A stretch of 64,000 nt of DNA from an uncultured Enterobacterales bacterium (GCA_964512185.1 CAZEJJ010000010.1:291-64290), one strand, 5' to 3'. Counted from the first letter of the stretch, positions 1,923 through 39,221 are shown. Program-made: numbers and translations. Notes: generated by a model not told the origin, from the sequence alone.

Positions 1923-2005
1923 GCACTACCGGGCGGGCACTTCACGTGGATCCGGGGGGACCCGTGACATATGGGAGCTGCCACCGTAGCCCCCCGGAGC
2001 GCCCC

Positions 2006-3496
2006 ATGGCCAAGGTCGTCTCCCTGGAGCCATCGCGGACCCTGGCTGAGTTCAGGCTCTTGCCCGGACTCACAGAGCGTACGCACGCCCACCACCTCAT
2101 CTCTCTCGGCACCTGCCTGGCCGAGCGCCCCGGCACCGCAGAGCATCTCTCGCTCAACATGCCGCTGTGCTCCGCCGCCATGCAGTCGGTGTCGGGCGCC
2201 CAGATGGGCATCGCGCTGGCGCGCGAAGGTGGTGCGGCGTTCATCTTCTGCTCGCAGTCCATCGCCAGCCAGTCCGCCATGGTCACCCAGGTCAAGCAGC
2301 ACAAGGCTGGCTTCGTCCAGCCCCTCACCGTCGGTCCCCGGCAGACCATCGCCGATCTGCACCAGATCGCATTGCGCACCGGCTACTCCACCTTCCCGGT
2401 GGTGAGCGAACAGGGCCGCCTGCTGGGCTTGGTCACGCGCAACGACTACCACGTGGACAAGCACGGCTCCTTGCCGGTCACCGAGCGCATGATCCCCCGC
2501 GACCGGCTCGACGTGGGGGTCGAGGTCACCAGCCTCAGCGAGGCCAACGACCTGCTGCTCGAGAGCCACCACTCGGGCCTGCCCATCGTGGACTCCCAGG
2601 AGCGGCTGCAGTACCTGGTGTTCAAGCGCGACATCCGCGATCAGCGCGAGCACCCGCTGCAGGTGGTGGATTCGCAGAAGCGCCTGCTGTCGGTGGCGGC
2701 GGTCAACACCCACGACCACGATCAGCGCGTGCCCGCCCTGGCAGAAGCCGGGGTCGACGCCCTGGCGCTGGACAGCTCCGACGGCTTCTCCGTCTACCAG
2801 GCCGAGACCGTCGGCTGGATCCGCGAGCGCTTTCCCGATCTGCCCATCATCGGGGGCAATGTCATCAGCGCTGCGGGCTTCCGCTACCTGGTGGCAGCCG
2901 GCGCCCACGCCATCAAGGTGGGCATGGGCGGGGGCTCCATCTGCATCACCCAGGAGCAGAAGGGCACCGGCCGAGGCCTGGCCACCGCCATCCTGGACGT
3001 GGTCCAGGAGCGCGATCGCTTCCACGCCGAGTCCGGCCGCTACGTCCCGGTCATCGCCGACGGCGGCATCGTCACCTCCAAGGACATGGTCATCGCGCTC
3101 GCTCTGGGAGCCGACTGCGTCATGGCGGGCCGCTGGTTCGCCCGCATGGAAGAGTCCCCCACCGAGAAGGTGCGCATCAACAACCGGGTCATGAAGCCCT
3201 ACTGGGGCGAGGGCTCCGCCAAGGCCCAGGAGTGGCGCAACGCCCGCTACCACCAGGGCAAGTTCGTCGAGGGCGTCGAAGGCTTCGTGGACTACGCCGG
3301 CTCCCTGGCCGACAACCTCGACTCCACCATGGCCAAGATCCGCGCCTCGCTCTCGTCCTGCGGCGCCGCCAGCATCCCCGAGCTGCACCGCGTGGCCCAG
3401 CTGGAGCTGGTCTCGCCCCTGTCCATCCGCGAGGGCAAGGTGCACGACATCCACATGGCCCCCAACGAGTCCTCCTACACCTCCAGCACGAGCTAG
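2006..3496 (+). CDS. guaB: IMP dehydrogenase family protein
   Basis: ATG at 2006 (MAKVVSLEPS) inside ORF 1946-3496; CBS-pair region; catalytic loop GGGSICITQE; IADGGI; stop 2 nt before purA start. Confidence 0.85.
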   Translation: MAKVVSLEPSRTLAEFRLLPGLTERTHAHHLISLGTCLAERPGTAEHLSLNMPLCSAAMQSVSGAQMGIALAREGGAAFIFCSQSIASQSAMVTQVKQHKAGFVQPLTVGPRQTIADLHQIALRTGYSTFPVVSEQGRLLGLVTRNDYHVDKHGSLPVTERMIPRDRLDVGVEVTSLSEANDLLLESHHSGLPIVDSQERLQYLVFKRDIRDQREHPLQVVDSQKRLLSVAAVNTHDHDQRVPALAEAGVDALALDSSDGFSVYQAETVGWIRERFPDLPIIGGNVISAAGFRYLVAAGAHAIKVGMGGGSICITQEQKGTGRGLATAILDVVQERDRFHAESGRYVPVIADGGIVTSKDMVIALALGADCVMAGRWFARMEESPTEKVRINNRVMKPYWGEGSAKAQEWRNARYHQGKFVEGVEGFVDYAGSLADNLDSTMAKIRASLSSCGAASIPELHRVAQLELVSPLSIREGKVHDIHMAPNESSYTSSTS

Positions 3497-3498
3497 AA

Positions 3499-4719
3499 AT
3501 GAGCACCTGCATCGTCCTGGGCTCCCAGTGGGGAGATGAAGGCAAGGGCAAGATGGTGGATCTGCTGGCGGCGGGCGCCGCGGTCGTGGTGCGCTTCCAG
3601 GGTGGGGCCAACGCCGGCCACACCATCTGGCACGGCGACCGCAAGGTGGTGCTGCACCAGGTACCCTCGGGCATCCTCACCCCTGGCTGCCTCAACCTGG
3701 TGGGCAACGGCTGCGTGGTGGATCCGGTGCTCATCCACCTGGAATTCGACGACCTCCGGGTGGCGGGTGTGGAGCCCACGCCTGAACGGCTGGGCATCTC
3801 CACCCTGGCGCACCTGATCACCCCCATCCACAAGCGCCTCGACGCCATCGGCGGGGGCCGCATCGGCACCACCGGCCGGGGCATCGGCTACTGCTACGCC
3901 GACAAGGCCCTGCGCATCGGCGTGCGCCTGCAGGCCATCCTCGACGGAGACCTCCAGCAGCGCTGCGAGATCCTGCTGCAGCACCACAGCCCCTGGCTCG
4001 AGAGCCATGATCCCGGCTCGGTCCAGCAGCTGGCCGTCCAGCTGCCTTCCTTCTACGAAGCCTGCGAGCGGCTCTCCCCCCTGCTGCGCGACATCCGTCC
4101 CGAGCTGCAGGCCGCGCTGCAGGCCGGCCGCAACGTGCTCTACGAGGGCGCCCAGGGCGCACTGCTCGACCTCGACCAGGGCAGCTACCCCTTCGTCACC
4201 TCCTCCAGCACGGCCCTGGGGGGCGCGCTCACGGGCACCGGGGTGTACACCCCCTTCCACGAGCGCATCGCGGTGCTCAAGGCCTACACCACCCGCGTGG
4301 GCAACGGCCCCTTCCCCACCGAGCTGCACGACACCACCGGCGAGCAGCTGCGCGCCAACGGGCGCGAGTTCGGCGCCACCACCGGCCGGCCCCGGCGCTG
4401 TGGCTGGCTCGATCTCTCCCTGCTGCGCGAAGCCTTCCGCGCCTCCGGCTACACCGGCATCGCGCTGACCAAGCTGGACTGCCTCACAGGGCTGCCCGAA
4501 GTGCGGGTTGCCACCGGGCGCGACGCCCTGGGCGAGCCCGTCTACCGCAGCTTCCCCGGCTGGTCCGAGGACATCTCCGCTGCCCGCGGCCTCTCCGACC
4601 TGCCCCCCCCTGCCCGCGCCTATGTGCACTTCGTAGCCGAGCAGCTCGGCACCCCCCTGGCTCTCTTGTCGACCGGCCCCGATCGCGACCAGACCATCCT
4701 CCTGGAGTCTCCATGGTAG
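3499..4719 (+). CDS. purA: Adenylosuccinate synthase
   Basis: MSTCIVLGSQWGDEGKGKMVD signature, GANAGHTI, TTGRGIG, GATTGRPRRCGW; in frame within ORF 2167-4719. Confidence 0.95.
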   Translation: MSTCIVLGSQWGDEGKGKMVDLLAAGAAVVVRFQGGANAGHTIWHGDRKVVLHQVPSGILTPGCLNLVGNGCVVDPVLIHLEFDDLRVAGVEPTPERLGISTLAHLITPIHKRLDAIGGGRIGTTGRGIGYCYADKALRIGVRLQAILDGDLQQRCEILLQHHSPWLESHDPGSVQQLAVQLPSFYEACERLSPLLRDIRPELQAALQAGRNVLYEGAQGALLDLDQGSYPFVTSSSTALGGALTGTGVYTPFHERIAVLKAYTTRVGNGPFPTELHDTTGEQLRANGREFGATTGRPRRCGWLDLSLLREAFRASGYTGIALTKLDCLTGLPEVRVATGRDALGEPVYRSFPGWSEDISAARGLSDLPPPARAYVHFVAEQLGTPLALLSTGPDRDQTILLESPW

Positions 4720-5810
4720 CCAGCAACGGCAAGGGCCCCTCCCAGCCGGGCCTCGACATCGACCTGGGCAACCTCTGCTCCAAGACCGCCTACGGCTGGG
4801 CCAAGCGCAGCTTCCAGAACCGCTGGAACAAGCTGGGCATGCCCTGCCTCAACGCCGAAGGTTCCTTCTCCAACCTGATGGAGTACGGCGAGCTGCGCAT
4901 CGCCATGAGCTCCGACGGCATCGGCACCAAGGTGGAGCTGGCCGAGCGCATGGGGGTCTACGACAGCCTGGGCTTCGACCTGGTGGCCATGACCTGCGAC
5001 GATCTCGCCGCCACGGGCATCGAGCCGGTCAACCTCAACAACGTGCTCGACGTGGACCGCCTGGACCACGAGGTGGTCGACGCCTTGATGCGCGGCCTGC
5101 ACGCCGCCGCCACCCAGGCCGGCGTGGCCGTGGTGGGCGGCGAGATCGCCGAGCTGGGCGATCGCATCGGAGGCTGGGGAACGGGCATGCACTTCAACTG
5201 GTGCGCCACCGCCATCGGCGTGCTGCCCAAGCCGCGCAAGCCCATCGACGGCACCGCGGTGGAGCCCGACCAGGCCGTGATCTCCGTGCGCAGCCGTGGC
5301 TTCCGCTCCAACGGCTTCTCCCTGATCCGGCGCGTCATGCAGCGGGCCCACGGCCCCCACTGGCACCGCGAGGCCGCCGACCACCGGCAGAGCTGGGGTG
5401 AGGTGCTGCTGGCTCCGTCGCTGATCTACTGCCCGCTGGTCAACGCCCTCTTGCGCGAAAAGTACACCCTCAGCGGCGTGGTGCATGTCACCGGCGGCGG
5501 CGTAGCCGACAACCTCTCCCGGGTGCTGGCCACCAACGGCCTGGGCGCCCACCTGGACGATCTGCACGAGCCCCAGGCCTTCGTGCGCGCCCTGCAGGCC
5601 CTGGGCGACGTACCCGAAGAGCAGGCCTACCGCCTGTGGAACATGGGCAACGGCCTGCTGCTCATCGTGCCCCGCGGCGAGCTCGAGGCGGCCTGCAAGT
5701 TCGCGGCTCGCAAGGGCTACATGGCGCGTCCCTGCGGACGCATCACCGACTCCCGCCACATCCTGCTGGAGACCAAGGGCTGCCACCCCACCCAGCTGGT
5801 CCACGAATAG
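4713..5810 (+). CDS. purM: Phosphoribosylformylglycinamidine cyclo-ligase (AIR synthase)
   Basis: SSDGIGTKVELA, GFDLVAMTCDDL and VTGGGVADNL motifs; ATG overlaps purA stop by 7 nt. Confidence 0.9.
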   Translation: MVASNGKGPSQPGLDIDLGNLCSKTAYGWAKRSFQNRWNKLGMPCLNAEGSFSNLMEYGELRIAMSSDGIGTKVELAERMGVYDSLGFDLVAMTCDDLAATGIEPVNLNNVLDVDRLDHEVVDALMRGLHAAATQAGVAVVGGEIAELGDRIGGWGTGMHFNWCATAIGVLPKPRKPIDGTAVEPDQAVISVRSRGFRSNGFSLIRRVMQRAHGPHWHREAADHRQSWGEVLLAPSLIYCPLVNALLREKYTLSGVVHVTGGGVADNLSRVLATNGLGAHLDDLHEPQAFVRALQALGDVPEEQAYRLWNMGNGLLLIVPRGELEAACKFAARKGYMARPCGRITDSRHILLETKGCHPTQLVHE

Positions 5811-5823
5811 CTCCGGAGAACCG

Positions 5824-8502
5824 ATGAGCCGCTCCCACCCCGCGGTCGTACAGCTCCACCTGGAACCGGGCGTGCCCGACGTGGCCGGCCGCCGCGTGTC
5901 CGAGGCAGCCCGCGCCTGGCTCGGCGTGGACACAGGTCGCGTCAAGACCGTGCAGGTCTATGTCATCGACTTCCCGCTCTCCGGCGGGCAGCTGCGCGAC
6001 TTCGCCCAGCAAGCCCTGCGCGACCGGGTCATCGAGCGGGTGCTGGTGGACGAGCCCTACAGCGATCCTGGCTACCGCTCCTTCGTGCTGGTGGCCAAGC
6101 ACCCGGGGGTCACCGACGACGTGGGCATCTCGGCCCAGCGCACCCTGGCCGACTGGCTCAACACCCAGCTCGACACCGCCACCCAGCACATCTTCGCACA
6201 GACGGTGTACCTGTTCGAGAACGCCGTGCCCGCCGAGCAGCTGCGCCAGCTGGCCGAGCAGGTGCTGGGCAACCCGCTGATCAACCAGTTCCGCTACGGG
6301 GCCTTCGACACCCTTCCCTGGGTGCACCCGGTGGTCAGCCTGCCCGCCGAGCCCGCGACCCACACCATCTCCCTGGACCTGCCGGACGACGAGCTGCTGG
6401 CGCTGTCCCAGCGCATGGTGCTCTCCCTCGATCTCGCCGAGCTGCACGCCATCCAGGCCCACTTTCGGGATCCGGCGGTGCGAGCGGGGCGCCGCCAGCG
6501 CAGCATGCCCACCGATCCCACCGACTGCGAGCTGGAGATCCTGGCCCAGACCTGGTCGGAGCACTGCAAGCACAAGGAATTCAACGCGCTGATCACCTAC
6601 CGCGACCTCGACACCGGCGAAGAGCAGGTGGTGGACTCCCTGTTCAAGACCTACATCCGCGGCTCCACCGAGGCCATCCGCGGCCAGCTGCGGGCCGCAG
6701 GCCACGACTGGTTGGTCAAGATCTTCTCCGACAACGCCGGCGTGGTGCGCATCGACGACGATCGCGTCTTCGTGTGGAAGGTGGAGACCCACAACACGCC
6801 CTCGGCGCTGGATCCCTACGGCGGCGCCATCACCGGTATCCTGGGCAACAACCGCGACCCGCTGGGCACCGGCGTGGGCGGCGCCCGGCTGCTGTTCAAC
6901 ACCAACGTGCTGTGCTTCGGCCCCCCGGGCTACGACAAGCCCCTGCTGCCCGGCCAGCTGCACCCCGCCCGCATCATGGAGGGCGTGCGCAGCGGCATCG
7001 AGGACGGGGGCAACAAGTCGGGCATCCCCACCGTCAACGGGGCCATCGTCTTCGACGATCGCTACGCGGGCAAGCCGCTGGTGTACTGCGGCACCGGAGG
7101 GGTCATGCCCAGCCACTACCTGGGCAAGCCCAGCTGGGAGAAGCCCATCGATCCGGGCGATCGCATCCTGATGGCGGGGGGTCGGGTGGGCAAGGACGGC
7201 ATCCACGGGGCCACCTTCTCCTCGGCCGAGGTTGACGAGAACTCCCCCCGCACCGCCGTGCAGATCGGCAGCCCCATCACCCAGAAGCTGCTGTCCGACT
7301 TCATGCAGCGCGCCTGTCAGCTGGGGCTCATCAAGTGCTCCACCGACAACGGCGCGGGCGGGCTCTCGTCTTCGGTGGGCGAGCTGGCCACCATCAGCGG
7401 CGGCGCCGTGGTGCAGCTCGAACACGTGCCCCTCAAGTACCCGGGGCTGATGCCCTGGGAGATCTTCGTGAGCGAGGCCCAGGAGCGCATGCAGCTGGTG
7501 GTGGAGCCCGACAAGCTGCAACAGGTCATGGATCTCGCGCGCCTGTTCGAGGTGGAGATCACCGACATCGGCGCCTTCACCAGCGATGGCCTGCTGCAGG
7601 TGCGCTACGGCGACGAGACCGTCGCGGCCCTCGACATCGAGTTCCTCCACGAAGGCGTGCCCCGCAAGCGCATGCTGGCAGAGTGGAGCGCCCCCAGGCT
7701 CTCCGAGCCCGATCTGCCCGAACCTGATGACCACGGCCAGGTGCTGCTGCGCCTGCTGGCGGCCGACGACATCTGCTCCCGCGAGCGCGTCATCCGCCAG
7801 TACGACCACGAGGTCAAGGGCAAGACCATCATCAAGCCGCTCATGGGCGCCGCGGGCGTGGCTCCTCAAGATGCGGCGGTGATGCGCCTGGGCTTCGACA
7901 GCTACGACGGCGTGGCGGTCAGCTGCGGCATCCTGCCGCGCTATGGCGACATCGACGCCTACGCCATGTCCGCCGGGGCCTTCGACGAAGCGGTGCGCCA
8001 GATCGTGGCCGTGGGTGGCCAGCTGCCCGATCCGGCCGATCCCACCAACCGCTTCTGGACGGTGAACGACAACTTCTGTGTGCCCGACTCGGCGTACCAC
8101 CCCGAGCACAACCCCGACGGCAAGTACAAGCTGGCCCAGCTGGTGCGCATGGCCCAGGCCCTGTACGACATGTCCACCTTCCTGGGCGTCCCCATGACCT
8201 CGGGCAAGGACTCCATGAAGAACGACTTCAGGGTCGAGGGCACCAAGATCTCCGTGCCGCCCACCATCCTCTACTCCATGGTGGCCCGCATCCCCGACGT
8301 GCGCCGCTGCGTCACCTCCCAGTTCCAGGCCGCCGGCGATGTCATCTGCCTGCTGGGGCGCACCGCCGACGAGCTGGGAGCCAGCCAGTACTACAAGCTG
8401 CACGGCCAGCTGGGCGCCAACGTACCCCAGGTGGACATGCCCAGGGCCCGCGAGCTGTACCAGCGGGTGCACAAGGCCATCTCCTACGGCCAGATCGCCT
8501 GA
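5824..8502 (+). CDS. purL: FGAM synthase subunit PurL with fused N-terminal PurS-like region; frame closed by an in-frame TGA at 8500-8502
   Basis: 892-aa ORF; N-terminal ~160 aa PurS-like; ETHNTPSALDPYGGA, DNGAGGLSSSVGE, TSGKDSMKND motifs; homology continues in the same frame after the TGA. Confidence 0.85.
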   Translation: MSRSHPAVVQLHLEPGVPDVAGRRVSEAARAWLGVDTGRVKTVQVYVIDFPLSGGQLRDFAQQALRDRVIERVLVDEPYSDPGYRSFVLVAKHPGVTDDVGISAQRTLADWLNTQLDTATQHIFAQTVYLFENAVPAEQLRQLAEQVLGNPLINQFRYGAFDTLPWVHPVVSLPAEPATHTISLDLPDDELLALSQRMVLSLDLAELHAIQAHFRDPAVRAGRRQRSMPTDPTDCELEILAQTWSEHCKHKEFNALITYRDLDTGEEQVVDSLFKTYIRGSTEAIRGQLRAAGHDWLVKIFSDNAGVVRIDDDRVFVWKVETHNTPSALDPYGGAITGILGNNRDPLGTGVGGARLLFNTNVLCFGPPGYDKPLLPGQLHPARIMEGVRSGIEDGGNKSGIPTVNGAIVFDDRYAGKPLVYCGTGGVMPSHYLGKPSWEKPIDPGDRILMAGGRVGKDGIHGATFSSAEVDENSPRTAVQIGSPITQKLLSDFMQRACQLGLIKCSTDNGAGGLSSSVGELATISGGAVVQLEHVPLKYPGLMPWEIFVSEAQERMQLVVEPDKLQQVMDLARLFEVEITDIGAFTSDGLLQVRYGDETVAALDIEFLHEGVPRKRMLAEWSAPRLSEPDLPEPDDHGQVLLRLLAADDICSRERVIRQYDHEVKGKTIIKPLMGAAGVAPQDAAVMRLGFDSYDGVAVSCGILPRYGDIDAYAMSAGAFDEAVRQIVAVGGQLPDPADPTNRFWTVNDNFCVPDSAYHPEHNPDGKYKLAQLVRMAQALYDMSTFLGVPMTSGKDSMKNDFRVEGTKISVPPTILYSMVARIPDVRRCVTSQFQAAGDVICLLGRTADELGASQYYKLHGQLGANVPQVDMPRARELYQRVHKAISYGQIA

Positions 8503-8838
8503 TGTCACGAGTGCTCCGATGGGGGCGTGGGGGTGGCCGTGGCCGAGTGCTGGTTGGGCTGGGGGCTGGGCTGCGAGGTGGAGATCGAGGTGGAGGACTG
8601 GGGCGTCGGCGCCACGGCCCTGCTCTACGCCGAGTCCCACTCCCGCTTCGTGGTCTCGGTGCCCGCCCACAAGCTGCAGGCCTTCCTGGAGCTCATGGGC
8701 ACCCACTGCCACGTGCTCGGCCGCGCCACCTCCAAGCCGCGCATGTGGGTCTGCCACCACGGCGATCCCATCATCAACCTGCCCGTCCAGGCGCTGCTCG
8801 ACGCCTGGCAGGGCGGCTCGGTGGGGAGGGTGTCATGA
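8503..8838 (+). pseudogene. purL: C-terminal remainder of PurL, same frame, downstream of the in-frame TGA
   Basis: 8503 is in frame with 5824; translation CHECSDGGVGVAVAECWLG... matches the conserved xSDGG(L/V)xVA(L/V)AE segment of PurL; stop overlaps purQ start (ATGA). Confidence 0.7.
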
Positions 8839-9677
8839 GCCGCTCCGTACACACGCTGGTCATCACCGGCTTCGGCATCAACTGCGAAGAGGAGCTGGCG
8901 GCGGCCTGGCAGCTGGCCGGCGCCGCGGCCCGCATCGCACACCTCAACGAGGTGCTCAGCGGCGCCGTGTCCATCCACGACTTCCAGGTCATCAGCCTGC
9001 CCGGCGGCTTCTCGTTTGGCGACGACCTGGGCTCGGGCAAGGTGCTGGCCAACAAGATCCGCTTCGCTCGCCTGCCCTCCGGGCGCACCCTGCTGGCCGA
9101 GATCCGCGTCTTCCTCCAGGGCGGCGGCTTCATCATCGGCATCTGCAACGGCTTCCAGGCGCTGGTCAAGATGGGCCTGCTGCCCGATGTGGGCGGCGAG
9201 CAACGCCAAGAGGTCTCCCTCACCACCAACAAGTCGGGCCTCTTCGAGGACCGCTGGGTGCACTGCAAGGTGCGCCCCGACACCCACACGGTCTTCTTGA
9301 AGGGCATCGACATCATCGCCCTGCCGGTGCGCCACGGCGAGGGCCGCCTGCTCATGCCCGACCCCCAGCTGCGCGAGCACATCCGCAGCCAGCATCTGGA
9401 CTGCATGGCCTACTGCACCCCCGACGGCGAGCCCACCAGCGACTACCCGGCCAACCCCAACGGCGCCGACCTGGACTGCGCGGCCTTGATCGATCGCAGC
9501 GGCCAGGTGCTGGGCATGATGCCCCACCCCGAGGCCTTCCTCTCCCTCTACAACCATCCCGACTGGCCTTCCATGCTGCGCGCCGATCCCGCGCGCTGCG
9601 AAAAAGGTGCTGGGCTGCGCATCTTCGAGAACCTGGTGCAGCACCTGCAGGGCCAGCCCTCCGAGGAGCAGGCATGA
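8835..9677 (+). CDS. purQ: FGAM synthase glutamine amidotransferase subunit
   Basis: MSRSVHTLVITGFGINCE start; nucleophile elbow ICNGFQALVKMGLLP; MMPHPE; 4-nt overlaps at both ends. Confidence 0.9.
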   Translation: MSRSVHTLVITGFGINCEEELAAAWQLAGAAARIAHLNEVLSGAVSIHDFQVISLPGGFSFGDDLGSGKVLANKIRFARLPSGRTLLAEIRVFLQGGGFIIGICNGFQALVKMGLLPDVGGEQRQEVSLTTNKSGLFEDRWVHCKVRPDTHTVFLKGIDIIALPVRHGEGRLLMPDPQLREHIRSQHLDCMAYCTPDGEPTSDYPANPNGADLDCAALIDRSGQVLGMMPHPEAFLSLYNHPDWPSMLRADPARCEKGAGLRIFENLVQHLQGQPSEEQA

Positions 9678-11287
9678 ACATCCCCATCCGACGCGCGCTG
9701 CTGTCGGTGTCCGACAAGACGGGCATCACGGACCTCGCCCGGGCGCTGCACGGCCTCGGCGTGGAGATCATCTCCACCGGCGGCACCGCCGCGGCGCTGC
9801 GCGAAGCCGGGCTGCCGGTCACCGACATCCAGCAGGTGAGCGGCAACCCCGAGGCCTTCGGTGGCCGCATGAAGACCATCAGCTTCGCGGTGGAGTCGGC
9901 GCTGCTGTTCCATCGCGAGCGCGACGCCGCCGAAGCCGCCAGCCTGGGCATCGAGCCCATCGACCTGGTGGCCTGCAACCTCTACCCCTTCCAGCAGGCC
10001 TGGCAGGCGGGGGCCGAGCTGCCCGAGCTCTGTGAACAGATCGACATCGGCGGCCCCACCATGCTGCGCGCGGCCGCCAAGAACGCCGCCTTCGTGGCCG
10101 CGCTGTGCGACCCCACCCACTACGGCGCGGTCATCGCGGAGCTGCAGGCCAACCAGGGCGGCCTGTCGCTGGCCACCCGCCAGCTGCTGGCGCGCCAGGT
10201 GTTCAACCACAGCGCCGACTACGACGCCGCCATCGCCCAGGCGCTGGACCAGGCGGGCGGCGAACGCAGCCTGCGCCTCGCCTACCACCAGCCCACCCCG
10301 CTGCGCTACGGCGAGAACAGCCACCAGCAGGCCTCGTTCCTGCGCCAGCGCGACGCCGAGCATTCCCTGCACGACGCCGAGATCCTGGGCGGCAAGGCGC
10401 TGTCCTACAACAACATCGTCGATCTCGACGCGGCGCTGCAGGCCGCGCTGGGGCTGGGCCCCGGGGGCTGCGCCATCATCAAGCACACCAACCCCTGCGG
10501 CCTGGCCCAGGGTGCCGAGCAGGCCTCGGTGTTCGCGGCGGCCTGGGCGGGCGATCCCCTCTCCTCCTTCGGCTCGGTCATCGCCTTCAACGCGCCCCTG
10601 CAGCTCGAAGCCGCGCGCTTCCTGAACCTGCACGCCGACAAGATCCGCCAGCGCCGCTTCGTCGAGGTGGTGGCCGCCCCCGCCTTCGAGGACGGCGTGG
10701 TGGAGTACCTGCAGCGCAACAGGAACCTGCGCATCCTGCGCTACCTGCCCGAGCAGGTGGCCCAGGCCCGCCAGCTGCGGCACGTCCCCGGCGGGCTGCT
10801 GCTGCAGGACTGCGACGACCAGGCTCTGGGCGAGCTGCGGCAGGTCACCCAGCTGCAGCTGGAGCCGCTCGACCACCAGCTCCTGGGCTTCGGCGCGGCG
10901 GCGGTCCGCCAGGTCAAGTCCAACGCCATCGTGGTGGTGAGGCGCCGAGACGACGGCGTGCTGCAGCTGCTGGGCATGGGCGCCGGCCAGCCCAACCGGG
11001 TCAACAGCACCCGCCTGTCCATCGAGCGGGCCCGGCTCAACCTCGAGCTCGAAGCCAAGCTGCTGGAGCTGGATCCTGTCCAGCACATCCAGCGGGAGCT
11101 GGGCCGCGCCTACCTGGTCTCCGACGCCTTCTTCCCCTTCCCCGACAACGTGGAGGTGGCCGCCGAAGCCGGCCTCCGCCACCTGTTCCAGCCCGGTGGC
11201 TCCATCCGCGACAAGGCGGTCACGCGCCGCTGCGACGAGCTGGGGCTGTCCATGACCTTCACCGGCCTGCGCCACTTCAAGCACTAG
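9674..11287 (+). CDS. purH: Bifunctional AICAR transformylase / IMP cyclohydrolase
   Basis: RALLSVSDKTGI, ISTGGTA, IKHTNPCG, ends GLRHFKH; in frame in ORF 8339-11287. Confidence 0.93.
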   Translation: MNIPIRRALLSVSDKTGITDLARALHGLGVEIISTGGTAAALREAGLPVTDIQQVSGNPEAFGGRMKTISFAVESALLFHRERDAAEAASLGIEPIDLVACNLYPFQQAWQAGAELPELCEQIDIGGPTMLRAAAKNAAFVAALCDPTHYGAVIAELQANQGGLSLATRQLLARQVFNHSADYDAAIAQALDQAGGERSLRLAYHQPTPLRYGENSHQQASFLRQRDAEHSLHDAEILGGKALSYNNIVDLDAALQAALGLGPGGCAIIKHTNPCGLAQGAEQASVFAAAWAGDPLSSFGSVIAFNAPLQLEAARFLNLHADKIRQRRFVEVVAAPAFEDGVVEYLQRNRNLRILRYLPEQVAQARQLRHVPGGLLLQDCDDQALGELRQVTQLQLEPLDHQLLGFGAAAVRQVKSNAIVVVRRRDDGVLQLLGMGAGQPNRVNSTRLSIERARLNLELEAKLLELDPVQHIQRELGRAYLVSDAFFPFPDNVEVAAEAGLRHLFQPGGSIRDKAVTRRCDELGLSMTFTGLRHFKH

Positions 11288-11296
11288 GACACAGCG

Positions 11297-12682: not shown

Positions 12683-12683
12683 C

Positions 12684-14365: not shown

Positions 14366-14368
14366 TTC

Positions 14369-15903: not shown

Positions 15904-15906
15904 CCC

Positions 15907-17321
<1,415 letters not shown>

Positions 17322-17340
<19 letters not shown>

Positions 17341-19136
17341 ATACCGTCGTCATCCTCGACTACGGCGGGCAGTACACGCACCTCATCGCCAAGGCCGTGC
17401 GCGGCCTGGGTGTGTACAGCCGCATCGAGCAGCCCGAGACCTTCCGGCCCGAACGCGAGCCGCACCTGGTGGGCCTGGTGCTCTCCGGCGGCCCCAGCTC
17501 GGTGTACGAGCCCGACGCCCCGGGCCTGCACTTCGATCCCCGCGAGGTCCCGGTGCCCATCCTGGGGCTCTGCTATGGCCACCAGCTGCTGGCCCAGGCC
17601 GTCGGCGGCGAGGTGCACGGCGAAGGTGAAGGCGAGTACGGTCTGGCCGAGGCCGACTGCAGCGCCGAAGCGGCACTGTTCCAGGGCCTCGACGCTGTGC
17701 AGCCGGTGTGGATGAGCCACCGCGACGCGGTGGTGCGCCTGCCCGCCGGCTACCGGGTCACCGCCTCCTCCATCGACCTGCCCATCGCCGCCTTCGAGTC
17801 CCCCGACCAGCGCATCTTCGGGCTGCAGTTCCACCCCGAGGTGAGCCACACGCGAGCTGGTCCCGCCATCCTCGATCGTTTCCTCTCGCGCTGCACCGAG
17901 CGCCGTGACTGGGATCCCGGCAGCTACGCCGATCTGTTGGCGGAGCAGCTCAGGCGCCAGGTGGGCCAGCGGCAGATCTTCCTGCTGGTCTCCGGCGGGG
18001 TGGACTCCCTGGTCACCCTGGCGCTGCTCATCCGGGCCCTGGGCCCCGACCGCGTGCACTCCCTGCACGTGGACACAGGCTTCATGCGCCTGGGCGAGTC
18101 CAGCGCCATCATGGACTTCCTGGCGGGCCTGGGCTTCGGCAACCTGCACCTGGCCCAGGCCGAGCAGCGCTACCTGCGCGCGCTGGCCGGGGTGGTGGAC
18201 CCGGAAGAGAAGCGCGCCATCATCGGGCGCCTGTTCATCGACGTGGTGGACGACGAGGTGCTGCAGCTCGACCTGGGTCCCGACTGGCTGCTGGCCCAGG
18301 GCACCATCTACCCCGACAGCATCGAGTCCGGCGCCACCGCCAAGGCCGAGGTCATCAAGACCCACCACAACCGGGTGCCCGAGATCCAGCGCCTCATCGC
18401 CGCCGGCCGGGTGGTGGAGCCCCTGCTGGATCTCTACAAGCACGAGGTGCGCGATCTGGGCCGCCAGCTGGGCCTGCCAGCCCACCTGGTGGATCGCCAC
18501 CCCTTCCCCGGTCCGGCGCTGGCCATCCGCGCCCTGTGCAGCGCCGACCAGCAGCCCCCCGCGGGCTTCGACGCCGAGCAGCCTGTCGCGGCGTCCCTGG
18601 CTGCCGAGCACGGCATGCTGGCCAGCGTGCTGCCGGTGCGCTCGGTGGGCGTGCAGGGCGACTCCCGCACCTACCAGCACCCGGTGGCCCTCTGGAACCC
18701 GCCGGATCGCTCGCTCGACTGGCAGGCGGTGCATCGCTGCGCCAGCGAGGTGGTCAACCGGCTGCGCAGCCTCAACCGCGCCGTCTTCGCCCCGGCGGGG
18801 CTCCACCCGGCCAGCCTGCGGCTGCTGCCCACCACCCTGGACAAGCCCGGCATGGACCTGCTGCGACAGGTTGATCACCTGGCTCACGAGCTCACCGCCC
18901 ACTGCAGCGACATCTGGCAGATGCCGGTGGTCTCCCTGCCCCTGGTGGACTCCCGGGGGCGGCGGGCCTTCGTGCTGCGTCCCGTCACCTCCCGCGACGC
19001 CATGACCGCCGACTTCTTCCGCATGCCTCCCGACCTGTTGGCTCGGCTGATCGGCGCCCTGCAGGCCATCCCCGGGGTAGGCCCCATCCTCTACGACGTC
19101 ACCACCAAGCCCCCGGGGACCATCGAGTGGGAGTAA
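17322..19136 (+). CDS. guaA: GMP synthase (glutamine-hydrolysing), long form with duplicated C-terminal dimerisation-type domain
   Basis: GATase LGLCYGHQLL; PP-loop LLVSGGVDS; HPFPGP; two copies of the LPV(R/V)S..GD.R.. module; ends KPPGTIEWE; 604 aa. Confidence 0.9.
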
Positions 19137-20434
19137 TCCAGCGCATCGTCGACGCCCGCTGGTTGGAGCCCCAGGGCGGCTTCGCGCAGGGCGTGATCCT
19201 CATCCAGGACGGCCGCCTGCGGCTGCGCCCTGGTGTGCAGGATCGCGCCGGGTCGGGCGACATCGGCGCCCAGGGCATGCTGGTGCTGCCCGGGCTGGTG
19301 GATCCCCACGTGCACCTGCGCGAGCCCGGCCAGGCCCGCAAAGAAGGCCTCAAAAACGGCGGCCTGGCGGCCCTGGCGGGGGGCGTGACCACCCTGCTGG
19401 ACATGCCCAACAACAATCCGCCCACCAGCACCGCGGCGCGCCTGGAGGCCAAGCGGGGCCTCTTTCGCCGCAAGAGCCCCGTGAACTGGGGCCTGTTCCT
19501 GCAGGCCACCCCCCGGCACCAGGATCCAAACGTGGCGGCCAGCATCGCGCCGGGCACCAGCGCGCTCAAGATCTACATGGCCCGGTCCTCGGCCCATCCA
19601 GCGGTCAACGATCCTCGCGTGCTGCGGGGCCTGCTTCGTGCCTGGCCGCGGGTGGCGATCCACGCCGAGGACGACAGCGCTTTCAAGGCCGGGCCCTTCG
19701 ACCAGCGCCAGGTCCGCCACCACGTTCACCGCCCACGAGCCTCCATCCAGCTGGCCCTGCACAAGATCGAAGCCGCCCTGCGAGCCCTGCCACCCAACGA
19801 GCGACCCCGGGTGGTCATCCTGCACGCCGCCACCATCCAGGAGGTGCGCTGGCTGGCGCGCATGAAGGCCGAAGGCTTCGACCTGTGGGGCGAGACCTGC
19901 CCCCACTACCTGGTGTTCACGGAGCAGGACCAGGAGCGCCTGGGTGGACTGCTCAAGGTCAACCCGCCCATCCGTGGGCCACAGGACCGCGAGGCCCTGC
20001 GCCGGGCCCTGGCCGACGGCACCATCGACTTCCTGGCCACGGATCACGCCCCGCACGCCCCCACCGAGAAAGCCCAGCTCGCCGACCCCCCCTCGGGGAT
20101 CGCCGCCATCGAGTGGCTCTGGCCCCTGCTGCTGGGTTTCCAGGAGCAGGGCTGGCTGGGCTGGGAGCAGCTCACCCGGGTGGGCTGCGCGGCGGCTTCC
20201 CGCTGCTACCACCTGCCCGGGCGCGGCGGCATCCGCGACGGCGCGGCGGCCGACCTGGTGCTGGTGCGGCGGGTGGAGAAGCCGCTCCCCACCCGGATAC
20301 ACACGCGTGCCGCCGCCCGGCCCTACCCGGCCCTGTCCTGGCGGGTCCAGTCCACCATCGTCAACGGCCTGCTCGCCTACCACGACGGGCACGCCACCGG
20401 CGCCAGAGGCGCCCAGGAGATCTACGCCCCATGA
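19127..20434 (+). CDS. pyrC: Dihydroorotase (amidohydrolase family)
   Basis: GTG start; PGLVDPHVHLREPG, ATDHAPH; position between guaA and pyrE. Confidence 0.8.
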   Translation: MGVIQRIVDARWLEPQGGFAQGVILIQDGRLRLRPGVQDRAGSGDIGAQGMLVLPGLVDPHVHLREPGQARKEGLKNGGLAALAGGVTTLLDMPNNNPPTSTAARLEAKRGLFRRKSPVNWGLFLQATPRHQDPNVAASIAPGTSALKIYMARSSAHPAVNDPRVLRGLLRAWPRVAIHAEDDSAFKAGPFDQRQVRHHVHRPRASIQLALHKIEAALRALPPNERPRVVILHAATIQEVRWLARMKAEGFDLWGETCPHYLVFTEQDQERLGGLLKVNPPIRGPQDREALRRALADGTIDFLATDHAPHAPTEKAQLADPPSGIAAIEWLWPLLLGFQEQGWLGWEQLTRVGCAAASRCYHLPGRGGIRDGAAADLVLVRRVEKPLPTRIHTRAAARPYPALSWRVQSTIVNGLLAYHDGHATGARGAQEIYAP

Positions 20435-21045
20435 GCTACCAAGACGACCTGGTCCGGCTGCTGTGCGACGCGGGTGCCTTGCGGTTCGGCAGCTTCACCC
20501 TCAAGTCCGGCGCCTCGTCGCCCTTCTTCGTCAACCTGGGTGATGTGGCCTCGGGCGCCCACGTGGCGGCGCTGGGTGGCCTGATGGCCCAGGGGCTGCG
20601 CGAGGGTTTTCCTCAGGCGGAGAGCCTCTTCGGCCCGGCCTACAAGGGCATCGTGATGGCCAGCGCCATCGCCCAGGCCGCCAGCCGCGAGCTGGACTGG
20701 GATCTGCCCTTCTTCTACGACCGCAAGGAGCAGAAGACCCACGGCGAGGGTGGCAGCTACATCGGCACCCTGCCTGAGCCGGGCTCCGTCGTGGTCATCA
20801 TCGATGACGTCTACAGCTCGGGGGGCACCAAGCTCGACGCGGTGCGCGCCCTGCGCCGCGACTTCGACGTGGACCCGGTGGGCATCCTGGTGGCGGTGGA
20901 CCGCCGCCAGAGAGACGTGGAGCTGGATCCCGAGCTGCCCCCCATGGCTTCCCTGGTGGACCTGCCCTTCCTGGTGGACTGGCTGGCCCGCAACGACCCG
21001 GCGCACTTCGGCGCCGTCCTGCGCTTCTTCGAGGAGAGACCATGA
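20431..21045 (+). CDS. pyrE: Orotate phosphoribosyltransferase
   Basis: FGSFTLKSGASSPFFVN, PRTase loop VVVIIDDVYSSGGT; ATGA overlap. Confidence 0.9.
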   Translation: MSYQDDLVRLLCDAGALRFGSFTLKSGASSPFFVNLGDVASGAHVAALGGLMAQGLREGFPQAESLFGPAYKGIVMASAIAQAASRELDWDLPFFYDRKEQKTHGEGGSYIGTLPEPGSVVVIIDDVYSSGGTKLDAVRALRRDFDVDPVGILVAVDRRQRDVELDPELPPMASLVDLPFLVDWLARNDPAHFGAVLRFFEERP

Positions 21046-21740
21046 GCTCCAAGACCTGGCGGCTGATCCCGGCCATGGACGTCACCAGCTTGAGCGAGGC
21101 CCGGCGCATCGCCGCCGCGGTGGGCGAACACCCCTTCGTGCACGGCTTCAAGCTGGGCTTCTCCCTTGGCCTCGGCTTCGGCCTGCCCGCGGCGGTGGCG
21201 GCCATCCGCGAGCACAGCAGCAAGCCCATCATCTACGACCATCAAAAAGCCGCCACCGACATCCCGGCCACCGGCGCGCTCTTCGCCCGGGTCATGGCCC
21301 AGGCGGGCATCGACGAGGTCATCCTCTTCCCCCAGGCGGGGCCCGAGACCCTGCGGGCCTGGGTCGCCGCCCTCCACGACCAGGGCCGCAAGGTCATCGT
21401 GGGCGGCGCCATGACCCACCCGGCCTATCTCGCGGCCGAAGGCGGCTTCCTGCAGGATGACGCCCCCGCGCGCATGTACGGCGTCGCGGCCCAGGCTGGC
21501 GTGCGGGCCTTCGTGGTGCCGCTCACCAAGCCCGAGGTGGCGCTGGCCTCCATGCGCGCCGCGGGCATCGGCGCCGAGTCCGAGTTCTACTCGCCGGGCT
21601 ACGGCAAGCAGGGCGGCGACCCCTCCCGCTTCGACTTCATCCAGCGGCACCACATCATCGTGGGCCGCTCGCTGCTGGGAGCCGCCGACCCGGCTGCCTG
21701 GGTCGATGGCCTGCAGCGCGAGCTCGAGGGTGGCTCATGA
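21042..21740 (+). CDS. pyrF: Orotidine 5-prime-phosphate decarboxylase
   Basis: LIPAMDV..., IIYDHQKAATDIPAT (DxKxxDI motif); ATGA overlaps both ends. Confidence 0.8.
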   Translation: MSSKTWRLIPAMDVTSLSEARRIAAAVGEHPFVHGFKLGFSLGLGFGLPAAVAAIREHSSKPIIYDHQKAATDIPATGALFARVMAQAGIDEVILFPQAGPETLRAWVAALHDQGRKVIVGGAMTHPAYLAAEGGFLQDDAPARMYGVAAQAGVRAFVVPLTKPEVALASMRAAGIGAESEFYSPGYGKQGGDPSRFDFIQRHHIIVGRSLLGAADPAAWVDGLQRELEGGS

Positions 21741-22657
21741 AGCGCGACCTCATCTCCATCAACGATCTGTCCAGGGAGGCCATCGAGGCCTACCTGGCCG
21801 GCGCGGCCGCCATCGAGCGCGTGCCGCGCCGTCACAAGCTGGAGCTGCTGCGTGGCTTCATCCTGTTGGAGATGTTCTTCGAGCCCTCCACGCGCACCAA
21901 GCTGTCCTTCGAGGCGGCCATGCGGCGCCTGGGTGGCGATGTCATCGGCTTCTCAGACGTGAGCACCACCTCCGTCAAGAAGGGCGAGTCCTTCCTCGAC
22001 ACGGTGCGCACCGTCGAGAACTACGCCGACATCATGGTCATCAGGCACCACCAGGAGGGCGCTGCCCGGCTGGCCGCGGTCACCAGCCGCCTGCCGGTGC
22101 TCAACGCCGGCGATGGCACCAACCAGCACCCCACGCAGACCCTGCTGGACCTGTACACCATCAAGAAGTTCTTCGGCCGCATCACGGGCCTCAAGATCTG
22201 CCTGGCGGGCGATCTCAAGTACTCGCGCACCGTCTACTCGCTGCTGCGCACCCTGCGCCTGTTCGAGGACAACGAGTTCCTGCTGGCCTCCCCCGACGCG
22301 CTGCGGGTGCCCGAGTACCTCAAGTACGACGACGCGGGCCGGCGACAGTCCTTCGTGGAGACCGACGATCTGCACGCCGCGGTGTGCAACTGCGACGTGC
22401 TCTACATGACGCGCATCCAGCGCGAGCGCTTTCCGGACATCGTGGAGTACGAGAAGGTCAAGAACATCTTCAGGCTCGACGCAGCCATGCTCGAGGGGGC
22501 CAGACCGCACCTCAAGGTGCTGCATCCGCTGCCCCGGGTCGACGAGATCACCGCCGATGTCGATGCCACCGGGCACGCCGGCTACTTCGAGCAGGTGGGC
22601 AACGGCGTGATCATGCGCGAAGCCGTGCTGCTGCATCACCTGGGGGTGTCGCTGTGA
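21737..22657 (+). CDS. pyrB: Aspartate carbamoyltransferase catalytic subunit
   Basis: FFEPSTRTKLSFE, HPTQTLLD, HPLPRV. Confidence 0.93.
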   Translation: MKRDLISINDLSREAIEAYLAGAAAIERVPRRHKLELLRGFILLEMFFEPSTRTKLSFEAAMRRLGGDVIGFSDVSTTSVKKGESFLDTVRTVENYADIMVIRHHQEGAARLAAVTSRLPVLNAGDGTNQHPTQTLLDLYTIKKFFGRITGLKICLAGDLKYSRTVYSLLRTLRLFEDNEFLLASPDALRVPEYLKYDDAGRRQSFVETDDLHAAVCNCDVLYMTRIQRERFPDIVEYEKVKNIFRLDAAMLEGARPHLKVLHPLPRVDEITADVDATGHAGYFEQVGNGVIMREAVLLHHLGVSL

Positions 22658-23139
22658 GCGCAACCGAAAAGCACCTCCTCATCCCCAAGATCGAGAGCGG
22701 CGTGGTCATCGACCACATCCCGGCCGGGCTCGGGCTGCGCATCGTCGAGATCATGCGGCAGTGGGCGGGCCTCGAAGACGCCATGCTCACCCTGGGCCTC
22801 AACCTGGCCAGCACCCGGGCCGGCACCAAGGACATGGTGAAGCTGCACGACCACCAGCTGCCCGCCGCGGTGGTGGCGCAGATCGCGCTGGTCTCGCCCG
22901 GCCTGACCATCAAGCGAGTGCAGGACTTCCGCGTGGTCGAAAAGCTCGTGCTGCAGCCTCCGCGCGAGATCCGGGATCTGGCCATCTGCCGCAACCCCAA
23001 CTGCGTCACCAACCGCGAGGCGGGTGTGCGCACCCACTTCAAGGCGGTGGATCCCAAGGCCAGCAAGTTCCGCTGTTCCTTCTGCGAGCGGGTCTTCCGC
23101 CTGCGGCACATGCAGTTCACCACGCCCATCTCCGCCTGA
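22654..23139 (+). CDS. pyrI: Aspartate carbamoyltransferase regulatory subunit
   Basis: GTG start overlapping pyrB stop; LLIPKIESGVVIDHIP; C-terminal Zn site CRNPNC...CSFC. Confidence 0.88.
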   Translation: MSATEKHLLIPKIESGVVIDHIPAGLGLRIVEIMRQWAGLEDAMLTLGLNLASTRAGTKDMVKLHDHQLPAAVVAQIALVSPGLTIKRVQDFRVVEKLVLQPPREIRDLAICRNPNCVTNREAGVRTHFKAVDPKASKFRCSFCERVFRLRHMQFTTPISA

Positions 23140-23162
23140 TCTCCGCCACCATCGAGCTCGCC

Positions 23163-24083
23163 TTGCCGTCCATCGCCACCTCCATCGCCGGTGTCCCCCT
23201 GGCCTCTCCGCTGGTGCTGGCCTCCGGGGTCCTGGGCATCTCAGCCTCCTCCCTGGCCTTCGTGGCCGATCATGGCGCGGGAGCGGTCACCACCAAGTCC
23301 TGCTCCCTGCAGCCCCGCAAGGGGCACCCCACCCCGGTGGTGGCGGCCTTCGAGCACGGGTTGATCAACGCGGTGGGGCTCTCCAATCCCGGCGCCGCCG
23401 GCATGGCCGCCGAGGTCCAGGACTACCTGCGGCGGGGCGGCGCGCCGGTCATCGCCTCGGTCTTCGGTGCCGACGCGCGGGAGTTCGCCCAGGTCAGCGC
23501 CATACTAGCCGCCGCGCGGCCGCAGCTGCTGGAGGTGAACGTCTCCTGCCCCAACGTGGCCTCCGAGTTCGGCACCCCTTTTTCATCCGATCCGGTGGCC
23601 ACCGCCGAGATCACGCGGGCGGTGGTGGAGCAGGCCCAGGGCATCCCCGTGGCGGTGAAGCTCTCCATCCACTGTCCCTCCCTGGGCGCGATGGCCGCGG
23701 CCTGCGCCGACGCGGGTGCCTCCGCCCTCACCGCCATCAACACGGTGGGACCGGCCATGATCATCGAGACCGGCTCCCGCCACGCGGTGCTGTCCAACAA
23801 GGTGGGTGGGCTCTCGGGGCCCGCCATCCTGCCCCTGGCGGTCAAGGCGGTCTGGGAGCTCTCCCACGCCTGCTCGCTGCCCATCATCGGCACCGGAGGT
23901 GTGGAGACCACCGACGGCGCGCTGCAGCTGCTGCTGGCCGGTGCCTCGGCGGTGGGTGTGGGCACAGGCATCTGGCGCAGGGGCGTCACCGTGCTGCAGG
24001 AGATCAACCAGGGACTGCGGGGCTGGCTCCACCAGCAAGGCTGCGCTGAGCTCTCCGAGATCATCGGAGCTGCCCATGCCTGA
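23163..24083 (+). CDS. pyrD: Dihydroorotate dehydrogenase, class 1B-type catalytic subunit
   Basis: AVGLSNPG, EVNVSCPN, GGLSGPAI, IIGTGGV; start uncertain (TTG 23163 is the nearest candidate; no ATG/GTG close by). Confidence 0.85.
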   Translation: MPSIATSIAGVPLASPLVLASGVLGISASSLAFVADHGAGAVTTKSCSLQPRKGHPTPVVAAFEHGLINAVGLSNPGAAGMAAEVQDYLRRGGAPVIASVFGADAREFAQVSAILAAARPQLLEVNVSCPNVASEFGTPFSSDPVATAEITRAVVEQAQGIPVAVKLSIHCPSLGAMAAACADAGASALTAINTVGPAMIIETGSRHAVLSNKVGGLSGPAILPLAVKAVWELSHACSLPIIGTGGVETTDGALQLLLAGASAVGVGTGIWRRGVTVLQEINQGLRGWLHQQGCAELSEIIGAAHA

Positions 24084-24858
24084 GTCCCCCGGCGCCATGC
24101 GCAGCTACCCCCTGCTGCGGGTCCTGGAGCACGCCCCGGACACCCGCAGCTTCGTTTTCTCGCAGCCCTTCCATGCCCTGCCAGGCCAGTTCGTGTTCGC
24201 CTGGATCCCCGGCGACCAGGAGAAGCCCTTCTCCATCTCGGAGCTCTGCGATGGTGAGCTGGAGATCACGGTCAAGGCCGTGGGCGGCTTCACCCGCGCC
24301 ATGATGGCCCTGCGCCCTGGCGACCGGGTGGGCCTGCGCGGTCCCTTCGGCAGCAGCTTCGATGCCTCGGGCCCCGTGGTGCTGCTCGGGGGCGGCATCG
24401 GCATCGCGCCTATCCGCTTCCTGGCCAGGCAGCTGCGGCGGCAGGGCCGACAGGATCCAGTGCTGCTGGGGGCGCGCGGCGCCGACGAGCACATCTTCGT
24501 CCATGACTTCCGACGACTCGGGGCGCGCTTTGCCACCGACGACGGCAGCCTCGGGCTGCATGGAACCGTGAGCGACCTGCTGCAGCGGCTGCCTGATCTC
24601 CAGGCTGGCACCACGCTCTGCGGCTGCGGTCCCGAGCCCATGCTGCTGGCCCTGCGGGCGGCGGCCCTGGAGCGCGGCCTGGCGGTGCAGCTGTCCTTCG
24701 AGCGCCTGATGAAGTGCGGGCTTGGCATCTGCGGCCAGTGCTGCGCAGACGGCTCGGGCATCCGCCTGTGCGTGGAAGGCCCGGTGCTGAGCGAGGCCCA
24801 CCTGGCACGACTCACCCACCTGGGCCAGCCCCACCGCGACGCGACGGGGCTCAGGTAG
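24076..24858 (+). CDS. pyrK: Dihydroorotate dehydrogenase electron-transfer subunit
   Basis: FNR-like fold (LLGGGIGIAP); C-terminal Cys cluster CGLGICGQCC...C; overlaps pyrD stop by 8 nt. Confidence 0.85.
   Translation: MPESPGAMRSYPLLRVLEHAPDTRSFVFSQPFHALPGQFVFAWIPGDQEKPFSISELCDGELEITVKAVGGFTRAMMALRPGDRVGLRGPFGSSFDASGPVVLLGGGIGIAPIRFLARQLRRQGRQDPVLLGARGADEHIFVHDFRRLGARFATDDGSLGLHGTVSDLLQRLPDLQAGTTLCGCGPEPMLLALRAAALERGLAVQLSFERLMKCGLGICGQCCADGSGIRLCVEGPVLSEAHLARLTHLGQPHRDATGLR

Positions 24859-37043: not shown

Positions 37044-39221
<2,178 letters not shown>

Follow-up and report, generated by a model that had tools for sequence, protein, structure and literature searches.

Can a bacterium keep its genes for making purines and pyrimidines as one unit, and set both pathways from one place? 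The question is raised by a 64,000-nucleotide (nt) stretch of DNA from an uncultured Enterobacterales bacterium (GCA_964512185.1, CAZEJJ010000010.1:291-64290), here called the window, in which 19 open reading frames (ORFs) for purine and pyrimidine biosynthesis follow one another on the + strand between positions 2006 and 24858. In textbook bacteria, the purine and pyrimidine genes lie apart and are governed by separate sensors (PurR or a guanine riboswitch for the former, PyrR or attenuation for the latter). The enzymes encoded here are ordinary, and it is their arrangement that represents a new form of the well-known nucleotide operons; the contiguity of 19 pathway genes far exceeds chance. 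The reading that we favour, with moderate confidence, is that of a conserved chromosomal 'nucleotide super-operon', which would be jointly controlled from the region upstream of its first gene and trimmed allosterically, and in which two in-frame stop codons would be errors of assembly.

Gene identities were assigned using Pfam and NCBIfam, which bore out those given in an earlier note on this DNA, except for the 'purS' half of a gene that it had called 'purSL'. The block opens with guaB (2006-3496), an inosine monophosphate (IMP) dehydrogenase gene with a CBS domain (Pfam IMPDH, 1.9e-97, plus CBS; 552.7 bits against the NCBIfam PRK07107-type IMPDH, slightly below the cut-off of 585), and purA (3499-4719), encoding adenylosuccinate synthetase (Adenylsucc_synt, 4.7e-140). 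These are followed by purM (4713-5810; aminoimidazole ribonucleotide [AIR] synthetase; AIRS and AIRS_C, with TIGR00878 at 8.4e-66); purL (5824-8838; formylglycinamidine ribonucleotide [FGAM] synthetase subunit; FGAR-AT_linker, with AIRS and AIRS_C on either side of an in-frame TGA in the window); purQ (8835-9677; the glutaminase subunit of the same enzyme; GATase_5, 1.3e-74); and purH (9674-11287; aminoimidazole carboxamide ribonucleotide [AICAR] formyltransferase/IMP cyclohydrolase; AICARFT_IMPCHas and MGS, with NF002049 at 526 bits, over its cut-off). Next come a purC-purE fusion (11297-12682; succinylaminoimidazole carboxamide ribonucleotide [SAICAR] synthetase joined to a class II PurE, an AIR carboxylase; SAICAR_synt and AIRC), purB (12684-14051; adenylosuccinate lyase; Lyase_1 and ASL_C), purD (14048-15298; glycinamide ribonucleotide [GAR] synthetase; GARS_N before an in-frame TAA in the window, GARS_A and GARS_C after it), purN (15295-15903; GAR formyltransferase; Formyl_trans_N, 2.7e-36), and purF (15907-17340; amidophosphoribosyltransferase; GATase_6, GATase_7, and Pribosyltran).

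The guaA gene (17322-19136) encodes a long, 604-amino-acid form of guanosine monophosphate (GMP) synthase (GATase and GMP_synt_C; NF000848 at 476 bits, over its cut-off) and leads into seven pyr genes. The first, pyrC (19127-20434, GTG start), was assigned as a dihydroorotase gene from Amidohydro_1, from its top NCBIfam matches, which are dihydroorotases under their cut-offs, and from its context. It is followed by pyrE (20431-21045; orotate phosphoribosyltransferase; Pribosyltran, with TIGR00336 at 108.5 bits, over its cut-off) and pyrF (21042-21740; orotidine monophosphate decarboxylase; OMPdecase, 1.8e-16). Both chains of an aspartate carbamoyltransferase (ATCase) holoenzyme are then encoded, the catalytic chain by pyrB (21737-22657; OTCace_N and OTCace) and the regulatory chain, with its allosteric and zinc domains, by pyrI (22654-23139, GTG start; PyrI and PyrI_C). 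The block closes with the two subunits of a class 1B dihydroorotate dehydrogenase, the catalytic subunit encoded by pyrD (23163-24083, start uncertain; DHO_dh, 9.4e-58) and the electron-transfer subunit by pyrK (24076-24858; NF000796 at 232 bits, over the cut-off of 224). Judged from these domains, the block is complete from phosphoribosyl pyrophosphate (PRPP) through IMP to adenosine monophosphate (AMP) and GMP, and from carbamoyl phosphate to uridine monophosphate (UMP). As the earlier note had stated, carAB, purK, pyrG, and pyrH are absent from the window; Pfam scans of all sizeable ORFs revealed none of them.

Two of these genes deserve closer attention. The PurE half of PurCE is most similar to the PAICS chains 4ja0 (1e-19) and 2h31 (3e-17) and to the class II PurE of Treponema, 3rg8 (2e-11), whereas the class I enzymes, the N5-carboxyaminoimidazole ribonucleotide mutases, match it more weakly (1e-9 to 1e-4). 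We took the motifs SAHK and AG-x-SN(G/A)L as the mark of class II; when aligned with 4ja0, 2h31, 3rg8, and the class I protein 1o4v, the PurE half displays SAHK and AG-x-SNGLG, not the class I SAHR and AGGAAHLPG. By sequence, then, it is a class II, PAICS-like enzyme and, because that class is independent of PurK, purK should be dispensable; none was found in the window or in the block of any relative. For background on class II PurE and the PurCE fusions of eukaryotes, see PMC3261824. The bacterial fusion belongs to a large family (homologues P0001-P0120 were sampled), the members of which are named merely 'SAICAR synthase' (NCBI) or 'fusion protein PurCD' (JGI). Annotators should be aware that pathway tools will probably count purE and purK as absent from genomes that bear PurCE; the fusion also bears on the origin of animal PAICS.

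The second is PurL, which possesses an N-terminal extension of approximately 190 amino acids plus a linker. The name 'purSL' is justified for its PurL part; the PurS part is only weakly supported, by a PF02700 match confined to residues 132-158 (E=4e-4; 20.9 bits, under the cut-off of 22.2) and by one marked 'faint' in the homologue of Calditrichota bacterium GD2 (hereafter GD2).

How tightly are these genes packed? When the junctions were recomputed, 12 of the 18 were start/stop overlaps, all at exactly the positions given in the earlier note, and the largest gap was 23 nt, also as claimed. Eight overlaps are of 4 nt (8835, 9674, 14048, 15295, 20431, 21042, 21737, and 22654) and four are longer (4713, 7 nt; 17322, 19 nt; 19127, 10 nt; 24076, 8 nt), while the other six junctions are gaps of 2, 13, 9, 1, 3, and 23 nt. 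The last of these, between pyrI and pyrD, presupposes a TTG start at 23163; a CTG start at 23136 would give a 4-nt overlap, as in the relatives. There is no ATG or GTG at the point where pyrD of the relatives overlaps pyrI, only this CTG and, nine codons downstream, the TTG, which is not preceded by a Shine–Dalgarno (SD) sequence. Twelve of the 19 starts have an SD-like sequence ahead of them, compared with a background of 22% at random positions of the block, and these sequences are embedded in the upstream genes. At the 3' boundary, a convergent gene on the - strand (24851-27391), encoding an 846-amino-acid amine-oxidase/thioesterase protein, shares 8 nt with the end of pyrK, which bears out the convergent overlap reported earlier; this gene is not kept beside the block in the relatives.

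Is the arrangement peculiar to this genome? To survey it, one genome per GTDB species was scanned with GuaA and then analysed using tblastn with all of the block proteins; for the 5' half, a metagenome scan with GuaB was combined with look-ups of PurCE homologues. L-numbers (L001, L014, and so on) are our labels for the related contigs or loci that were compared with the window. The same order across purF-guaA-pyrC occurs in 10 GTDB species representatives (L003, L005-L009, L011, L014, L015, and L020). Five of these (L003, L005, L006, L007, and L020; mean identity 65-73%) and a further four (L008, L009, L011, and L014; 54-56%) display the order purL to pyrK, or as much of it as the contig covers, and L015 displays purF-guaA-pyrC. 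At least 10 species-level metagenome-assembled genomes (MAGs) carry the order, at 54-75% identity. The 5' start, guaB-purA-purM-purL, is found in L083-L085, L160, L168, and L170; L083 and L005 come from a single 56-kb contig, on which the block is complete.

In 15 relatives, 177 of the 193 scored junctions are 25 nt or less, and most of the 4-nt overlaps are retained. The boundaries are constant, with guaB first and pyrK last, down to a mean identity of about 54%, while the flanking genes are unrelated and differ between species; no additional nucleotide genes were found in the relatives before guaA or after pyrK. The order also extends to a second phylum: the GD2 chromosome (CM137747.1) has it at a mean identity of 54%, although its spacers are longer, two small genes have been added, and guaA is missing from the block. 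Other merged orders exist as well. Approximately 18 low-GC contigs read pyrD-pyrK-pyrC-pyrEF(fused)-pyrB-pyrI-guaB-(purA)-purM-purL-purQ-purH-purCE-purD, and in L167, pyrE, a pyrD/K fusion, and pyrF precede purCE-purB-purD-purN-purF. The PyrE-PyrF fusion (L101, 4141-5517) has the domain order of the eukaryotic UMP synthase, and the PyrD-PyrK fusion lies at 7032-8636 of L167.

The block is thus not unique but common in public environmental genomes, in many uncultured bacteria, and its carriers were deposited as 'Pseudomonadota', 'Enterobacterales', or 'Myxococcales' MAGs. The earlier note was prepared to give up its reading if the same arrangement proved to be already widespread and annotated in the clade. 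Half of this is the case: the arrangement occurs widely, both within the clade and outside it, and at least one NCBI genome carries gene-level annotation, but full-text literature searches of limited coverage found no published description of a merged pur-pyr operon. As a separate observation, Iainarchaeota (DPANN) and Patescibacteria MAGs (L021-L056) encode proteins related to the 604-amino-acid form of GuaA (17322-19136) at some 40-48% identity, in most cases without another block gene nearby; these are about as close as the GuaA of MAGs labelled Haliangium or Kofleriaceae.

If the block is one unit, one would look for its controls ahead of guaB. There, a region of approximately 165 nt (1845-2005, + strand) contains invariant blocks in an alignment of six sequences, namely the window (1845-2008) and five relatives (L083, 9838-10006; L084, 7457-7625; L085, 9838-10006; L168, 559-727; and L170, 561-729). 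The genes further upstream are different, being ceramidase-like genes and genes of unknown kind in the relatives versus an FG-GAP gene in the window. Conserved elements include a GCnCnCAAC box, a TnAnGG box, and an inverted repeat; then TGGATC (1947-1952) and CATA (1968-1971), at a constant spacing of 15 nt; and lastly, ahead of the guaB ATG, a near-invariant stretch with a GGAG SD sequence (1996-1999).

The inverted repeat, GCGGACAG-TTT-CTGTCCGC (1898-1916, + strand), was picked up in a terminator scan, and with the adjoining bases (1898-1922) it has the form of a terminator, an 8-bp stem followed by CTTTTTG. To this extent the terminator-like hairpin of the earlier note exists. It is not simply the terminator of the upstream gene, since the T-run sits in a 23-28-nt insertion specific to the window (1917-1944) and is lacking in all five relatives, which keep the hairpin behind different upstream genes. 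GGAC..GTCC is invariant in 6/6 sequences, and in L168 and L170 the fifth pair has changed from A-T to G-C, a compensatory substitution.

We hypothesise that this region is the control region of the block, made up of a promoter together with an operator or else with a short RNA hairpin. An extended structured leader is unsupported because Rfam gave nothing relevant, the folding z-score of the leader is -0.55, and RNAalifold on the six sequences supports the hairpin alone (consensus energy -15.6, with no net covariation bonus). The Rfam search yielded no match at gathering score in the whole window or in the loci of the five relatives, and nothing relevant in the leader up to E=10; upstream of the block, no covariance model for the purine, ZTP, or PRPP riboswitches or for a PyrR site matched. 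Two further candidates were rejected. A sigma-54 reading of TGGATC finds its GG-N10-GC in L084 only (by eye), and a regulon built on the palindrome GGACAG-N3-CTGTCC finds no second good copy in the window, its matches elsewhere in the loci being scattered, apparently by chance, and mostly away from the starts of block genes. A related repeat in L160 overlaps the promoter-like sequence TTGACC-N17-TACACT.

How might such a block work? Transcription would start in the conserved region upstream of guaB and run through most or all of the block, and ribosomes would hand over from gene to gene at the 4-nt overlaps. The enzyme capacities for purines and pyrimidines would thereby be set together, and the balance between them would be trimmed post-translationally through the allostery of enzymes that the block itself encodes, namely the PyrB-PyrI ATCase, PurF, and the CBS-domain GuaB. 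The + strand genes are co-directional and contiguous, with gaps of at most 23 nt, as one would expect of an operon. Within the block, consensus scans found no + strand terminator above chance and 0-1 promoter-like matches, none of them notable; these scans fit DNA of about 70% GC, as in the window, poorly and are weak for promoters inside genes. There are no AT-rich dips either, that is, no 40-nt window of the block falls below 45% GC. A single transcript is plausible, and may reasonably be inferred, in the case of the window and its close relatives.

The single unit proposed in the earlier note stands in part: order and boundaries are kept while the flanks differ, and there is no intergenic room, but the relatives tolerate breaks. 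The points that weigh against a single unit should be kept in mind. L014 carries a 1.2-kb insert with opposite-strand ORFs exactly between guaA and pyrC (11839-13114 of this 3.3-Mb contig); L007 and L020 carry inserts of approximately 0.8 kb between pyrI and pyrD; L005 has a 169-nt spacer between pyrB and pyrI; and L013 and L016 have guaB-guaA-pyr without pur genes. In GD2, stretches of 97-1051 nt separate several of the block genes, two of these stretches holding an extra gene, and the block contains no guaA. Promoters within coding sequence are compatible with the scans, given their poor fit to 70% GC, and in the GD2 locus a promoter and terminator scan gave counts equal to chance. The putative promoter TGGATC-N15-CATA is put forward from conservation in six sequences only. 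The allosteric balancing step, finally, is suggested by analogy with the textbook ATCase and PurF of Escherichia coli. One ORF of the L014 insert, which has a small upstream partner, resembles a VapC/PIN toxin, by eye only.

Given the breaks in L014, L007, L020, L005, L013, and L016, the array is modular. This opens the way to the strongest alternative, an 'uber-operon', in which the cluster is conserved without being one operon and consists of the modules guaB; purA; purM to purF; guaA; pyrC to pyrI; and pyrD-pyrK. Promoters inside coding sequence would then permit separate regulation of purines and pyrimidines despite the tight packing. The breaks do fall at borders between modules (guaA|pyrC in L014, pyrI|pyrD in L007 and L020, pyrB|pyrI in L005), and modules are found in other combinations, as in the guaB-guaA-pyr loci (L013 and L016), the pyr-guaB-pur order of the 18 low-GC contigs, and the pyrE-pyrDK-pyrF-purCE.. 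order of L167; GD2 spacers of 100-220 nt point the same way. The window and its close relatives, however, have no intergenic room, AT-rich dip, or terminator, and the 4-nt overlaps continue across module borders, examples being 1-3 nt for purN/purF, -19 for purF/guaA, and -10 to +3 for guaA/pyrC. We regard separate modules as possible, although on balance unlikely.

What has kept these genes together is a related matter, and one answer is compatible with the super-operon: the block may have been retained mainly by moving as a unit, a self-contained module passed between phyla in the manner of a 'selfish operon'. GD2 (mean 54%) and the 'Myxococcales' MAGs (54-56%) lie at the same distance from the window and have the same order, which is compatible both with an ancient arrangement since lost from many lineages and with whole-block transfer between phyla. 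In favour of the latter, pur modules at 47-58% identity are present in MAGs labelled Ignavibacteriales and Wallbacteria, the flanks are never conserved, and MAGs labelled Haliangium or Kofleriaceae have the same type of GuaA but no block. The GC content of the block and that of its third codon positions (GC3), on the other hand, are those of the flanks; no tRNA, integrase, or repeat was found at its borders; and no plasmid or phage relative matched. Taxonomic labels of MAGs are, moreover, unreliable. Dispersal as a unit is, in our view, rather doubtful. As for a recent island, composition, borders, and the lack of plasmid or phage relatives speak against it, and an origin as a mobile element, plasmid, phage, or genomic island was rejected on the same grounds.

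Bolder, and distinctly improbable, is the proposal that a self-sufficient 'nucleotide autonomy' cassette has crossed phyla (a Myxococcota-like high-GC lineage, Calditrichota, and perhaps others of the FCB group) together with one undescribed control region upstream of guaB, the GGAC..GTCC repeat and its boxes, at which a regulator or RNA element would switch both pathways together. If true, this joint switching logic has no counterpart in E. coli or Bacillus subtilis.

Do the in-frame stops undermine the super-operon? The earlier note overlooked both of them, a TGA in purL (8500-8502) and a TAA in purD (14363-14365). Relative to L001 (JGI) and L002 (ENA), which are from the same strain, each stop belongs to a cluster of substitutions on the + strand, 11 at 8500-8561 and 13 at 14294-14383, mostly C>G and A>T. 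These two contigs are identical to positions 1297-22682 of the window bar both clusters and one single-nucleotide polymorphism (1614), and a further 7.4 kb of the window displays zero differences from two other contigs. L001 and L002 encode an intact PurL of 1004 amino acids and an intact PurD of 416, with canonical motifs present. Exact look-ups found the truncated products (892 amino acids for PurL; 105 + 309 for PurD) only on an NCBI contig of 70,924 bp, evidently the source of the window, and the intact versions on JGI, ENA, and Logan contigs. Because other assemblies of the same strain hold intact genes and the truncated forms are confined to the NCBI contig, the stops, and the clusters around them, are probably local errors of the deposited assembly, not gene decay. 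A template-switch or inverted-repeat origin of the clusters was considered and rejected, there being no matching sequence nearby.

That the stops are genuine and the block is decaying in a strain that is a purine auxotroph is very hard to believe: the window and the deposited NCBI contig do contain them, but the remaining 17 genes are uninterrupted and match those of the other assemblies exactly, each stop shares 60-90 nt with 10-12 more transversions that alter invariant motifs (SDGGLAVALAE to SDGGVGVAVAE), 21 kb elsewhere are identical bar one polymorphism and another 7.4 kb without any difference, and intact versions exist on 2-4 independent contigs.

The super-operon remains our preferred reading, and its interest rests on the implied joint control, the unexplained conserved element upstream, and the PAICS-like fusion. 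Across many species, both pathways and both purine branches are united behind one conserved upstream region, which suggests that some lineages treat their total capacity for nucleotide synthesis as a single setting, with allosteric enzymes left to adjust the balance. The block is also a natural, compact 23-kb cassette for all steps to AMP, GMP, and UMP bar the synthesis of carbamoyl phosphate.

Some features elsewhere in the window may be recorded briefly. At 30416-30449, between convergent genes, a perfect 15-bp inverted repeat (ATGATTACGTTTTTG / CAAAAACGTAATCAT) is possibly a bidirectional terminator; it lies in the sole strongly AT-rich spot of the window (28% GC). Positions 50264-55000 hold genes for a carbamoyltransferase, a class V aminotransferase/cysteine-desulfurase-like protein, a QueC/ThiI-like ATPase, TusA (called in L163), and PqqD, perhaps a cluster devoted to peptide or sulfur modification. 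At 15-1700, 32500-34233, and 37044-41189 lie genes for large repeat proteins with FG-GAP and MopE motifs, one of these proteins having 1381 amino acids and at least five MopE motifs; L007 likewise has proteins with these motifs on the flanks of its block. In the window, the MopE-motif, FG-GAP, and kinase genes that flank the block have a myxobacterial look.

How does the block compare with known systems? The closest is the pur operon of B. subtilis (purEKBCSQLFMNHD), likewise a long, co-directional, overlapping array that covers the whole IMP pathway, with a split FGAM synthetase (PurL and PurQ) and with PurN and PurH in use. The window block differs in lacking PurK, in having a class II PurE fused to PurC, and in having no separate purS gene; it includes guaB, purA, and guaA, follows another gene order, and continues on the same strand into seven pyr genes. 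Neither a guanine riboswitch nor a PurBox was found at the window block. With the pyr operon of the same bacterium (pyrR-P-B-C-AA-AB-K-D-F-E) it shares the clustering of pyrB, pyrC, pyrK, pyrD, pyrF, and pyrE and the PyrK/PyrD type 1B dehydrogenase, but it has no pyrR, pyrP, or carAB and no Rfam match to the PyrR attenuator, and it has pyrI, in another order and joined to pur and gua genes. As in the E. coli pyrBI operon, pyrI directly follows pyrB and both PyrI domains are present, whereas in E. coli these two genes form an operon with its own attenuator and the other pyr genes are scattered.

The fusion protein invites comparison with animal PAICS, with which it shares the domain order, PurC N-terminal and class II PurE C-terminal, and which supplies the chains closest to its PurE half (4ja0 and 2h31). 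It differs in that its PurC half resembles yeast ADE1 and mycobacterial PurC more closely than it does the SAICAR-synthetase domain of PAICS, and in that it belongs to a bacterial family, with an AIR carboxylase activity that is predicted. For sheer constancy of order, a parallel is the ribosomal-protein str-S10-spc-alpha cluster, in which the order of some 20 genes is likewise kept across phyla with very short spacers. That cluster, however, encodes one macromolecular complex, whereas the window block joins two pathways that are separately regulated in model organisms.

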